Of a DNA stretch of 26,585 nucleotides, positions 10,333-13,666 are shown one piece after another. Every line of letters starts with the position of its first letter. Within the stretch, counting starts at the first letter, position 1. Below the pieces are notes generated by a model. It was not told where the DNA came from and searched no databases. It worked only from the letters and a program-made list of their open reading frames with translations. The DNA comes from Ignisphaera sp. (lineage in GTDB: Archaea > Thermoproteota > Thermoprotei_A > Sulfolobales > Ignisphaeraceae). The translations under genes were made by a program, and so were the position numbers. Where the stretch lies: NCBI GenBank assembly GCA_038821645.1, contig JAWBDT010000021.1:1-26585 (forward strand). The letters run 5' to 3'.

Positions 10333-11358
10333 TTGTTTGATATATGTCTTCATATGAATGGTTATAACAAGGTGCTATTTTTAGCTATTGGTGGTGGAGG
10401 AGATGTTGCTTTAGCTGCAACTCTAGCTCTATCGTATGAAAGATGTAGAGGGCAAGCTGTTGTTGGATCTATTGCTTGGGAACGTTATTCGGTAGATCCT
10501 GTTCCAGGACCTATATCAATAGATGAATTATTTAATACTGTAAAGAAGACTGAAGACTATGCTATTGTAAATGCTAACACCTTTGCTATAAGAGGTGGTA
10601 GAGTCGTTATACCTCAACCAGTTAATGTATCAAAATTTCTGAAAAGAGATATTGTTGTCTTTGAACTAAGCAAAGGTGCTAAAGGTTTAGCTAGAGCTAT
10701 AGAAAACTACATGAATAGTCATGGAATCGATGCTGTTATCGGTGTTGACGTTGGAGGAGATTCGCTAGCTGAAGGTTTTGAAGATGAGCTTTGGAGTCCT
10801 TTAGCTGATGGTATATCTGTAGCAGCATTAGCACGCGTCATGAGATCTTACTTGGCTGTAGCTTGTCCTGGAGCTGATGGAGAACTCCCTATAAACTATA
10901 TAGAGAAAAGACTACGCAGAATAGCTCGATTAAACGGTTATTTAGGAGGCTATATACTTTCTCGAAAGGATCTTGAGGTATTGAGAAACATACTTATTGA
11001 AGTAGTATCAGAAGCAAGCACAATACCATTAACAGTACTTAGTACAGATTTGGATAAAATTGTGATTAGAAATGGAAGTAGAGAAGTACGACTATCCATC
11101 ATAAATTTAGCAGTATTTCTACTGGATGCAGTTACTGTAGCCAGAGACACTATTGCTCGGTATATATATGATACTGATAGTTTTAATGAAGCAAAGTGGA
11201 TACTTAATAAGTTAGGAATAGTAACAGAATATGATATCGAAGAAGAGATATTTAATGAGATCGTTCAAGGAAGAAACTATGCTGATATAGATCTAGTAGA
11301 GATAAGAAATAGGTTAAGAAATAGACTTATAAAACTACATAAACCTAACAAAACATGA
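10333..11358 (+). CDS. DUF1152 family protein
   Basis: AIGGGGDV, WERY.VDPVPGP, GVDVGGD.LA.G.E..LWSPLAD, GADGEL and SEAS. The start may be ATG 10354. Confidence 0.85.
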   Translation: MFDICLHMNGYNKVLFLAIGGGGDVALAATLALSYERCRGQAVVGSIAWERYSVDPVPGPISIDELFNTVKKTEDYAIVNANTFAIRGGRVVIPQPVNVSKFLKRDIVVFELSKGAKGLARAIENYMNSHGIDAVIGVDVGGDSLAEGFEDELWSPLADGISVAALARVMRSYLAVACPGADGELPINYIEKRLRRIARLNGYLGGYILSRKDLEVLRNILIEVVSEASTIPLTVLSTDLDKIVIRNGSREVRLSIINLAVFLLDAVTVARDTIARYIYDTDSFNEAKWILNKLGIVTEYDIEEEIFNEIVQGRNYADIDLVEIRNRLRNRLIKLHKPNKT

Positions 11359-11429: not shown

Positions 11430-11467
11430 TATTAATATTACGTAACCATATTAATATTATGTAACCA
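11430..11467. repeat. Tandem direct repeat, 2 x 19 bp (TATTAATATTAYGTAACCA)
   Basis: 11430-11448 TATTAATATTACGTAACCA and 11449-11467 TATTAATATTATGTAACCA differ by one mismatch. A partial TTATGTA follows. Confidence 0.8.
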
Positions 11468-11578
11468 TTATGTATGATTTAAAAATAGTATAATCTTGAT
11501 TGCCACATAGAGGGAAAGAAATAAATTGTGATCTGATGAAGATTCCTATCTATCTAGAGCCACTAGTAATTATTGTGT

Positions 11579-11633
11579 TCATCAGAAACACAAGCCTTCA
11601 TCATTAAGTCAGTACAGCCGTGATCATCATTCT
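11579..11633 (-). ncRNA. Box C/D 2'-O-methylation guide sRNA (candidate 2)
   Basis: The minus strand reads ATGATGA(C, 11630-11624)-TCACGGCTGTA-CTGA(D', 11612-11609)-CTTA-ATGATGA(C', 11604-11598)-AGGCTTGTGTTT-CTGA(D, 11585-11582). All four boxes are perfect, with 11- and 12-nt guides. Confidence 0.9.
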
Positions 11634-11658
11634 TCGATACATTCTGGAATACGATAGC

Positions 11659-11931
11659 TTATCTACTACTAGGTCTTTGCTCTTTTTTAGCTCTTTTGTA
11701 TATGTGCACAAGTATAAGTCCTGCAAACGTTATTTTGTATCTTCCACTTCTTGTCCTCCTTATGAATCCTGCTTTACGTAACTTTCTTATCATTGTCTTA
11801 GTTCTATATGGGTCTAGATTCCATAGCTTAGAAAGTTCTTCTTCAGTAAATGATTTGTTCGGAGATGTATCAAGATCTTTGATAAAATATATATAGTTTT
11901 CGAGAGATGATACATCTATAGAATCTGTCAA
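11659..11931 (-). CDS. Small winged-helix DNA-binding protein
   Basis: FTEEELSKLWNLDPYRTKTMIRKLRKAGFIRRTRSGRYKITFAG is a wHTH with a basic wing. It lies 24 bp downstream of TIP49. Confidence 0.75.
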   Translation of the reverse strand: MTDSIDVSSLENYIYFIKDLDTSPNKSFTEEELSKLWNLDPYRTKTMIRKLRKAGFIRRTRSGRYKITFAGLILVHIYKRAKKEQRPSSR

Positions 11932-11955
11932 GTCTGTTCAGCTCAATGCTGATCT

Positions 11956-13347
11956 CTATTTCAAGAGCTTTGATTCCCATGACTTTGCTAATTCTGTGCT
12001 TTGTGAAATATCTATAAAGAGTTTGGTTACTTCCTCAATATCTTCAGATCTAACCTCTGATCTTCCCTTCCGTTCAGCTATTATTTTTGCTGGATGCATT
12101 AGCTGTACAGCATATCTTAAGCTTCTACTACCTGCAATCTTAACTAGATAGTCTATAGCTTCTGGAGTCAATTCTACTTCTTCTTCACTAGCTCTAATTT
12201 TTATTATCTCTTTAACCTCATTCTCTGTATAAGGTCTGAAGGGTATTATTAGAAGTCTGTCAAGAATGTCTAGCGGTATACCATGAGGAGATTCTATATC
12301 TGTTCCACGTATCTTGGTTATACCTCTATTTGTTGCCATTATTATTATAGGTGAGAACTCGCTCTCCATAACTCTCGATAAGAAGCTAAACGCCTCTATA
12401 TCAAGCATATGAACATCATCTATGAACAAGACCCCTGGAACTAACGATGCTTTGTTTTCAGATAAGAGTTTTCTGGCAGTTTCATCTGAAGCCTTCCTTA
12501 TCTCAGGATCTATCTCTTTTTCTTCAGCAAACAGACTTATTATTGATACAGCTCTTCTTTGAGCTAGATAAGCTTCATCTATATCATGAAGAGTTATCGT
12601 TCTCACAATCTCTTTCTCTTTAAATATCTTACCTTTGGGCATATCTTCATAAACTTTGTACGTCTCGACATCGAAATAACGAGCTTTTTCAATACCCTTC
12701 ACACGTCCAAGTTTAAAGACTTCGCCAGTATCACTATCAATGCTTATGAGATCTCCTCTCCTTATACCAAGTTGAGCTAACTGCATAGCTATGCTTTGAT
12801 CTACCTCTATAGTTTTTTCTTCATCTTTTGTAGATAAAGTTATTCTTGCTGCTCTTGGTATTTTTGCATAGGGATTAAATGGATGTGAAGCTAAAGAGAA
12901 CTTAAGTTCTTTAACAACACCCTCGTAGACTCTTCTAATCTCTTTATATCTAAGTCCTATAGCTCTTCTAACAGCTCTCATAAGTATCTCAGTTTTCTTT
13001 AGTTCTGTAGAATATAACTCAGATCCATTGAGCATTACAAAAGGTGTGTCTTCGCCAAGCTCTCTAGCTATACCTATTGCTAAAGCTGTTTTACCTACAC
13101 CAGGCGGACCTACAAAAAGTATTCCTCTGCCTGCAAGCTTACCTTCCTTAATCATCTTCACAATTATTCCTGCCGCCCGTCTAGCTTCTAACTGACCTAC
13201 AAGACCATCTGCAACAAATATTGGTTCACCTTTTTCATCAAGACCAAGTCCCCTTATGTGGCTATGTGCACTAATCCTCTTTAACATTTCAATCTTGCTT
13301 TCTTCTTTGATTTCTCTAATCATTCTAAGTCGCCTAATACAAATCAA
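11956..13347 (-). CDS. TIP49/RuvB-like (Rvb1/Rvb2 homolog) AAA+ ATPase
   Basis: RISAHSHIRGLGLD, GLVGQ..AR.AAG, Walker A GPPGVGKT, KKTE.L, TLHDID, PGVLFIDDVHMLDIE, ATNRG and SPHGIPLD.LDR. Likely start ATG 13323. Confidence 0.96.
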   Translation of the reverse strand: MICIRRLRMIREIKEESKIEMLKRISAHSHIRGLGLDEKGEPIFVADGLVGQLEARRAAGIIVKMIKEGKLAGRGILFVGPPGVGKTALAIGIARELGEDTPFVMLNGSELYSTELKKTEILMRAVRRAIGLRYKEIRRVYEGVVKELKFSLASHPFNPYAKIPRAARITLSTKDEEKTIEVDQSIAMQLAQLGIRRGDLISIDSDTGEVFKLGRVKGIEKARYFDVETYKVYEDMPKGKIFKEKEIVRTITLHDIDEAYLAQRRAVSIISLFAEEKEIDPEIRKASDETARKLLSENKASLVPGVLFIDDVHMLDIEAFSFLSRVMESEFSPIIIMATNRGITKIRGTDIESPHGIPLDILDRLLIIPFRPYTENEVKEIIKIRASEEEVELTPEAIDYLVKIAGSRSLRYAVQLMHPAKIIAERKGRSEVRSEDIEEVTKLFIDISQSTELAKSWESKLLK

Positions 13348-13666
13348 TTCTATATATGGTGCTTACAAATTTCATCTCAACTTTAGCTCTAAATATATTA
13401 CTGGATCCAGCTATAAATTTTGATAAAGATATAAATGACTATCTAATTGACTAATATAGACCTATAACTTGATATAGTTTTAGATGTGAAGAGAATCTTG
13501 CAAGAGGTATGGGGTTTCTGATTTTCTATAAAAACGATATATCTCTATTGTTAAACACAGTTTAGAGTTATTCAAGACCTTATAGATAAATCTATCAACA
13601 AAAATTCCATATCACTTCTCAATATAAAGTTTGCTTCAATACCTAACTTTAAGACCTAGGTTTGAG

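Follow-up and report, generated by a model that had tools for sequence, protein, structure and literature searches.

Among the box C/D small RNAs (sRNAs) described in archaea, those closest in guide content to the element studied here are Sacs-R123 from Sulfolobus acidocaldarius and IHOsR401 from Ignicoccus hospitalis, both listed in Additional file 1 of Dennis et al. 2015 (PMC4644070), which carry the same D guide. The element is a box C/D sRNA of Ignisphaera sp., encoded on the minus strand of contig JAWBDT010000021.1 behind a gene for the AAA+ ATPase TIP49 and a small open reading frame (ORF) for a probable winged helix-turn-helix (wHTH) protein. The window, that is, the whole stretch of 26,585 nucleotides (nt) (26.6 kb) that was analysed, provides the coordinates used throughout, and the genome to which it belongs (G000) has a size of 1.57 Mb. 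The analysis makes it probable that this sRNA is a bona fide dual guide for two sites of the 23S ribosomal RNA (rRNA) of its own organism, placed behind TIP49 and the wHTH gene at the level of the genus and without specific meaning for TIP49.

The D guides of Sacs-R123 (..GGCCCGUGUUU) and IHOsR401 (..GACCCGUGUUA) address the same 23S rRNA motif, AAAC[A]CGGG, as the sRNA of the window. The D' halves are not alike: in Sacs-R123, unlike in the window sRNA, the D'/C' region is degenerate, and the D' guide of IHOsR401 is a different one. Loci matching Sacs-R123 and IHOsR401 were recovered in the genomes G045, G035 and G031 with the window sRNA as query, and the genomic sites of both sRNAs are unrelated to TIP49, being located, for example, ~0.67 Mb away from it in G035 and G045.

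A further counterpart is found in eukaryotes, in U18 and its yeast form snR18 (25S Am649), since the D guide of the window sRNA picks the A in GAAAC[A]CGG, which is the context of yeast A649. DNAzymes of the 10-23 type are designed to leave the target purine unpaired. The context of yeast 25S A649 was read accordingly from the arms of the DNAzyme directed against A649 in Table 1 of PMC3938493, and the equivalence with U18/snR18 is one of rRNA motif only. With respect to the upstream gene, the system for comparison is the eukaryotic R2TP complex (Rvb1-Rvb2 = TIP49/TIP48), given that the gene in the window is a clear TIP49-family AAA+ ATPase. Nothing in the present analysis ties archaeal TIP49 to small ribonucleoprotein particles (sRNPs), and the adjacency of sRNAs is no stronger for this gene than for enolase.

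Box C/D sRNA Characterization

The element measures 49 nt from box C through box D (11582-11630, minus strand), and the mature RNA probably extends a few nt past these boxes on each side. In the direction of the minus strand it comprises box C, AUGAUGA (11630-11624), in agreement with the RUGAUGA consensus given in PMC7994747; an 11-nt D' guide, UCACGGCUGUA (11623-11613); box D', CUGA (11612-11609), followed by a 4-nt loop, CUUA; box C', AUGAUGA (11604-11598); a 12-nt D guide, AGGCUUGUGUUU (11597-11586); and box D, CUGA (11585-11582). The spacers, 11 nt from C to D' and 12 nt from C' to D, are within the guide length of 10-12 nt described in PMC7994747. The sRNA is present as a single copy in the genome. 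An initial annotation of this DNA had described a four-box C/D sRNA on the minus strand, starting about 28 nt after the wHTH stop and co-oriented with the wHTH and TIP49 genes. Its description proved accurate in each respect, as the four boxes are in place, the measured distance is 28 nt and the three features are all on the minus strand.

The covariance-model search that had been proposed was carried out with Rfam, and the sRNA was the sole gathering-level match of the window (sR5, RF01304; 40.3 bits versus a gathering score of 40; E 3.2e-06). This match is due to the four boxes and the distances between them, the guide columns being mostly in disagreement. The guides of Sac-sR5, AUGGUCGACGGAA and AUUGUUGCCGGA, are without similarity to UCACGGCUGUA and AGGCUUGUGUUU, and therefore the window sRNA does not belong to the sR5 guide family. 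An sRNA identical to Sac-sR5 abuts the TIP49 stop codon in G045, with an sR5 score of 43 bits; Sac-sR5 is thus a positional analogue of the window sRNA and not a demonstrated orthologue.

A strict four-box regular expression matched 5 sites of the genome, compared with 0 in every one of 10 block shuffles, while a looser four-box pattern found 28 sites (26 distinct) and none in the shuffles. Boxes as short as these, in an AT-rich genome and at a site without RNA reads, could in principle be a chance array of motifs with no RNA gene behind it. The probability of such an array is negligible in view of the 5 strict sites versus 0 in shuffles, the conservation of the element, between diverging flanks, in 13/13 genomes of the genus, and the pairing of its guides with neighbouring rRNA sites. 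The gene for Nop5 (PF01798) is also encoded in the genome (C11:24159-24836; E 1.5e-75 in the profile search). The element is a genuine archaeal dual-guide box C/D sRNA.

Prediction of the rRNA Targets

The G+C content of the genome is 35%, and that of the rRNA is 65%. The initial annotation had given the complement of each guide without assigning targets; both sequences are correct as complements, but as such they are absent from the 16S rRNA, the 23S rRNA and the 46 transfer RNAs (tRNAs) of the organism. Pairing with 23S rRNA relies on G-U wobbles and one end mismatch: the D guide matches positions 689-700 (AAAC[A]CGGGCCG) with 9 Watson-Crick and 2 G-U pairs, and the D' guide matches positions 708-718 (CACA[G]CCGUGG) with 9 Watson-Crick pairs and 1 G-U pair. 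The fifth position upstream of D and D' is Watson-Crick paired in both guides, and the box-plus-five rule, by which the methylated nucleotide was assigned, predicts A693 and G712 as the modified sites. Both guides find their best rRNA matches within a single 30-nt stretch of 23S rRNA, with the two predicted sites 19 nt apart, and no match among the 46 tRNAs equals them. When both guides were shuffled jointly, two equally good matches at a distance of ≤50 nt were obtained in only 5/2000 shuffles. Archaeal dual guides are described in PMC4644070 as often having their two targets within 100 nt of each other.

The assignment is settled by the comparative data, as the target is invariant, the guide cores are kept and the substitutions are compensated by G-U pairing. 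The target stretch of 23S rRNA is the same in all 12 genomes of the genus in which it was located, and the core of the D' guide, CACGGCUGU, is present in 13/13 orthologues of the genus. Most relatives possess the D guide CCCGUGUU, fully Watson-Crick paired to the site AACACGGG, and the genome of the window and its closest relative, 95% identical, show two C-to-U changes in this guide with the pairing retained as G-U. The motif around A693, UCUUGAAAC[A]CGGG, is conserved. The search of the guides against the rRNAs that had earlier been recommended has consequently yielded predicted targets, and the sRNA most likely guides 2'-O-methylation of A693 (D guide) and G712 (D' guide) in the 23S rRNA of its own organism.

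The only other exact copy of the D guide in the genome, at C3:127964, was rejected as a target because it is a sense-strand copy, so that the mRNA contains the sequence of the guide itself and not its complement; by our estimate, ~0.2 copies are expected by chance. Its host is a 439-amino acid (aa) ORF (C3:127050-128366) with the P-loop GAVESGKT, Clp1/Grc3-like by eye, and the presence of the copy there was judged to be due to chance. A second C/D sRNA of G000 (C2:67804-67855, minus strand) has guides, AACGGCUGUGAA and ACCGUGUUUAAU, that are related to those of the window sRNA. Its D' guide forms 11 Watson-Crick pairs with 23S rRNA positions 706-717, with C710 as the predicted target, 2 nt from the site of the window sRNA, and from their sequences the two sRNAs look like paralogues with shifted targets.

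The guides also bear on the proposal that the sRNA acts in cis, with L7Ae bound to a kink-turn (k-turn) in the 3' untranslated region (UTR) tuning the stability or translation of the TIP49-wHTH mRNA, and with rRNA guiding secondary or lost. Regulation of archaeal translation by L7Ae bound to mRNA k-turns has been proposed (PMC5539422), and sRNAs at 3' ends possibly affect mRNA stability (PMC6009581). Throughout the genus, both guides of the window sRNA are nevertheless conserved together with their complementarity to rRNA, as selection for guiding predicts, a complementary stretch in the host mRNA was not seen, and the other D-guide copy belongs to the sense strand of the Clp1-like ORF. An action in cis is therefore regarded as very improbable.

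Synteny of the sRNA in the Genus and the Order

The block formed by TIP49, the wHTH gene and the sRNA is kept in 13/13 sampled genomes of the genus, with boxes and guides conserved while the flanks diverge. In all of them the sRNA follows the stop codon of TIP49 by 271-340 nt and that of the wHTH gene by 8-63 nt; 11 of the orthologues were recovered with the loose pattern and the two others have longer D'-C' loops. A wHTH gene was detected by tblastn behind TIP49 at 13/13 loci of the genus, and no credible tblastn match was obtained at 17 TIP49 loci outside it (best E 5.2). The outer neighbours vary: a gene for an iron-containing alcohol dehydrogenase (Fe-ADH) is found upstream at 2/13 loci of the genus, and the DUF1152 gene is the convergent downstream neighbour at 7/13, with one genome encoding it elsewhere and five lacking it at the locus.

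The sample of the order included 121 genomes, all with a TIP49 match, although a few of these matches were weak or partial. Outside the genus, the window sRNA was detected at 0/117 scanned TIP49 loci, and in the sister genus of the same family neither the wHTH gene nor the sRNA is present at TIP49. sRNAs with a like D guide were found in 12 genomes of the families f6, f3, f13 and f9, on other contigs or hundreds of kb away from TIP49; in G028 (f6), the genome that was checked, the D' guide also pairs with the same helix strand. The comparison of synteny proposed in the initial annotation thus delimits the linkage instead of extending it: as the block is confined to the genus and sRNAs with a like D guide are located elsewhere in other families, the sRNA of the window is linked to TIP49 as a genus-level trait. 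The placement of the sRNA behind TIP49-wHTH arose in the ancestor of the genus and has since been retained.

Box C/D sRNAs at TIP49 and Control Gene Loci

For the scans of loci a wider sRNA pattern was used, which gave 43 sites in the genome of the window versus 1-3 in shuffles. With this pattern, sRNA matches were obtained at 19/97 TIP49 loci outside the genus and at 11/20 further loci, the sRNAs flanking TIP49 there being different from that of the window. The sRNAs abutting TIP49 represent at least four unrelated lineages and are spread over six families of two orders.

In family f13, TIP49 is followed by an sRNA with a box C that includes or adjoins the stop codon of the gene; the motif of this sRNA was found at 17/19 loci (L120 of G045, L122 of G035 and 15 others), and a second sRNA is encoded 46-365 nt upstream of TIP49 on the opposite strand. 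In G045, the downstream sRNA has exactly the sequence of the catalogued Sac-sR5 and the upstream one that of Sac-sR109, likewise catalogued. The upstream sRNA of G035 precedes a divergent gene for a PfkB kinase by 14 nt. A different sRNA, in which D' and C' are separated by an unusually long GC hairpin (about GGCCUUAGGGGCUGGGGCC), is located 52-167 nt upstream of TIP49 (L023, L031, L087, L088, L090, L020, L021, L219-L222, L235). The D guide of this sRNA, (C)UUCAGCGGC, is conserved and pairs with 23S rRNA positions 2061-2074. This hairpin sRNA occurs in f10, f7 and f16, the last belonging to another order (4/4 loci), and in f2 through a match to the D-guide motif at L080; it shares the strand of TIP49 in f10 and is encoded on the other one in f7 and f16. 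A search of G000 for this D-guide motif revealed no such sRNA. The protein genes neighbouring these TIP49 loci are metabolic.

Arbitrary background was represented by 1.2 Mb of the same genomes, in 20-kb regions with 385 ORFs of ≥300 aa. An sRNA was found within 200 nt of 17/97 non-genus TIP49 loci versus 6/385 of these ORFs, and within 1 kb of 14/385 of them. Four control genes picked beforehand (MCM, RadA, enolase and Nop5) were submitted to the same scan with 30 loci each. sRNAs flanked 13/43 TIP49 loci in the matched sample, compared with 11/30 for enolase (in 5 families), 5/30 for RadA (in 2 families), 1/30 for Nop5 and 0/30 for MCM. The arbitrary 20-kb regions, against which TIP49 shows an eleven-fold excess, were consequently rejected as a null, because the control genes span 0 to 37%. 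TIP49 falls within the range of conserved genes, at its high end, with Nop5, a core sRNP gene, at the low end; the adjacency signal is real against arbitrary genes and gone against conserved control genes. TIP49 may have a weak preference for C/D sRNA neighbours.

The enolase loci share a guide, GGUUAAAAGCG, across the families f7, f4 and f6 (L299, L300, L305, L306, L318, L323, L327), which is also present in the catalogued Sac-sR26, TtesR106 and IHOsR154; the listed position of Sac-sR26 is ~0.3 kb from the enolase match of G045. The adjacency of enolase and sRNA is deeply conserved, without obvious functional meaning. In the genus of the window, a different sRNA flanks enolase (L320, L322, L324; G000 C11:10858-10907).

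The initial annotation had suggested an ancestral link between TIP49 and the biogenesis of C/D RNPs, with the caveat that archaeal sRNAs often adjoin unrelated ORFs. In its full form this proposal states that C/D sRNAs are preferentially hosted by TIP49 genes in Thermoprotei, that TIP49 helps to assemble or remodel archaeal C/D sRNPs as Rvb1/Rvb2 of the eukaryotic R2TP do, R2TP deriving from such a system, and that selection keeps the sRNAs adjacent for co-expression. A role of eukaryotic TIP48/TIP49 in the biogenesis of small nucleolar RNPs of the box C/D type is established, mutually unrelated C/D sRNAs flank TIP49 in several lineages (13/13 genomes in the genus of the window, and f13, f10, f7, f2 and f16), and the excess over arbitrary ORFs is that given above. 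The matched controls behave alike, though, with enolase and RadA flanked as TIP49 is; only 1/30 Nop5 loci are flanked, so that proximity to C/D RNP genes is no rule; and the window sRNA is unlinked from TIP49 beyond one genus. For assembly in vitro, archaeal C/D sRNPs need no proteins other than L7Ae, Nop5 and fibrillarin, which was likewise counted against the link. The pull-down partners given for archaeal TIP49 in the literature available to us are TFB3 and RNA polymerase subunits, co-precipitated in S. acidocaldarius, and a protein kinase, co-purified in S. islandicus, with no sRNP proteins among them, and the portions of the literature retrieved by searches on archaeal and Sulfolobus TIP49 contained no report tying this protein to C/D sRNPs. 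We regard the proposal as improbable. The hint of an ancestral link is not supported, and the caveat was borne out by the sRNAs next to enolase and RadA. The arrangement of TIP49 and sRNA is ordinary, and the placement is uninformative on the role of TIP49.

Organization and Transcription of the Locus

The gene for TIP49, a RuvB-like AAA+ ATPase, is located at 11956-13323 on the minus strand (Pfam TIP49, 2.1e-136; TIP49_C, 1.1e-23). The listed ORF extends to a TTG at 13347, and the ATG at 13323 is the likelier start, because the relatives align from residue 5-12 on and an ATATATA run precedes this ATG by ~31 nt, an arrangement that suits a promoter and a start with a short leader better than the TTG does. 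Judged by the usual position and spacing of crenarchaeal promoters, this run (13351-13357, minus strand) is a candidate TATA box of the TIP49 unit. A Pfam search as a test for the presence of TIP49 was discarded: it matched all 14 control genomes, including bacteria, through AAA+/RuvB likeness, and is thus unable to indicate which archaea lack the gene. The small ORF of 90 aa (11659-11931, minus strand) probably encodes a wHTH protein, its Pfam matches being all sub-threshold (HTH_45, 22.4 bits versus a cut-off of 25.5; MarR, 21.6 versus 24.6; DUF4423). A gap of 24 nt separates TIP49 from the wHTH gene, and box C follows the wHTH stop after the 28 nt indicated above. A T-rich stretch, UUUAUUUCUUUCCCU (11511-11526, minus strand), ~55 nt past box D, is from its composition a candidate end of the transcription unit, which is closed downstream by a convergent DUF1152 gene (10333-11358, plus strand; Pfam DUF1152, 9.7e-94). 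Between the sRNA and this gene there are two tandem AT-rich units of 20 nt at 11431-11470, UAAUGGUUACAUAAUAUUAA and UAUGGUUACGUAAUAUUAAU (minus strand).

Most archaeal C/D sRNA genes are described as overlapping or abutting ORFs and being cut from longer transcripts (PMC7994747, PMC6009581), with an own promoter in only ~20% of them (PMC7994747). In the genome of the window, 8/26 distinct candidates of the loose pattern overlap or lie ≤35 nt from the 3' end of a co-oriented ORF; these include the window sRNA, behind the 90-aa ORF, and seven others at ORFs of ≥100 aa. In four metatranscriptome runs, the contigs of one run span 11661-13391, covering TIP49 and the wHTH gene and derived in part from a ~91% identical relative, a second run gave one contig inside TIP49 (~12870-13113) and the remaining two gave none.

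In the genome of the window, the 50 nt that precede box C contain no A/T run of ≥6, so that the sRNA most likely stems from read-through of the TIP49-wHTH unit and subsequent trimming. Alternatively, the sRNA could have a promoter of its own, in or immediately past the wHTH coding end, and be expressed independently of the TIP49-wHTH transcript. In 6/13 genomes of the genus a ATATATAA run, which also codes for the IYK motif of the wHTH protein, is found 32-38 nt before box C, and an internal promoter at this run is possible in these relatives; five other genomes show different A/T runs 29-45 nt before box C, and a share of about 20% for such promoters is that of the survey cited above. The absence of any such run here, the single run of the closest relative at -13, and the retention of the sRNA 8-63 nt behind the wHTH stop in 13/13 genomes while the genes on both outer sides change argue against a separate promoter, which is regarded as unlikely. 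Transcription of the sRNA within the TIP49-wHTH unit is plausible.

Proposed Function and Assessment

In the genome of the window, a read-through transcript of TIP49-wHTH would carry the sRNA in its 3' UTR, from which it would be trimmed out. The C/D and C'/D' motifs would fold into a k-turn and a k-loop, respectively, and the RNA would bind L7Ae, Nop5 and fibrillarin. The resulting sRNP is predicted to 2'-O-methylate A693 and G712 of the nascent 23S rRNA, the latter situated 19 nt downstream, on the neighbouring helix strand. By binding two sites so close to each other, the sRNA may also aid local folding of the rRNA.

Besides the possible internal promoter of six relatives, several observations weigh against the interpretation of the sRNA as a functional dual guide whose placement is without specific meaning for TIP49. 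No terminal stem of ≥3 bp flanks boxes C and D in the genome of the window, in which one pair is possible; in G004, a relative of the genus, a stem of ~6 bp is possible, judged by eye from the flanks. Such a stem is missing from many archaeal sRNAs and its absence was not taken as disqualifying. No assembled contig of the four metatranscriptome runs overlaps the sRNA (11582-11630), and these data are silent on its expression, its ends and its co-transcription. Individually, shuffled guides score equally well somewhere in the rRNAs in 431/2000 cases for D' and 531/2000 for D. The C-to-D' spacer is 11 nt here versus ≥12 nt in all 12 relatives, and for this reason the D' target is shifted by one nt (G712 here, A711 in the relatives); the shifted target could be guided less efficiently. 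On the side of TIP49, 32/110 loci overall in the sample of the order have a C/D sRNA neighbour, well above arbitrary ORFs of ≥300 aa (14/385 within 1 kb), and the case against a specific link is based on only four control genes, in related genomes that are non-independent.

Significance

The window sRNA can be annotated as a dual guide for two neighbouring sites of 23S rRNA and as a member of an already catalogued guide lineage, with its predicted targets now assigned. One of these sites matches a site methylated in yeast, which supports the view of this methylation as old. A tie between TIP49 and C/D RNPs, if true, would provide a function for the poorly understood archaeal TIP49 and would root R2TP in archaea. 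C/D sRNA genes stay at the ends of conserved genes over long evolution, as in the case of enolase, with its sR26-like guide in three families; since sRNAs cling to conserved genes in this way, their adjacency to a suggestively named gene is to be interpreted with matched controls.

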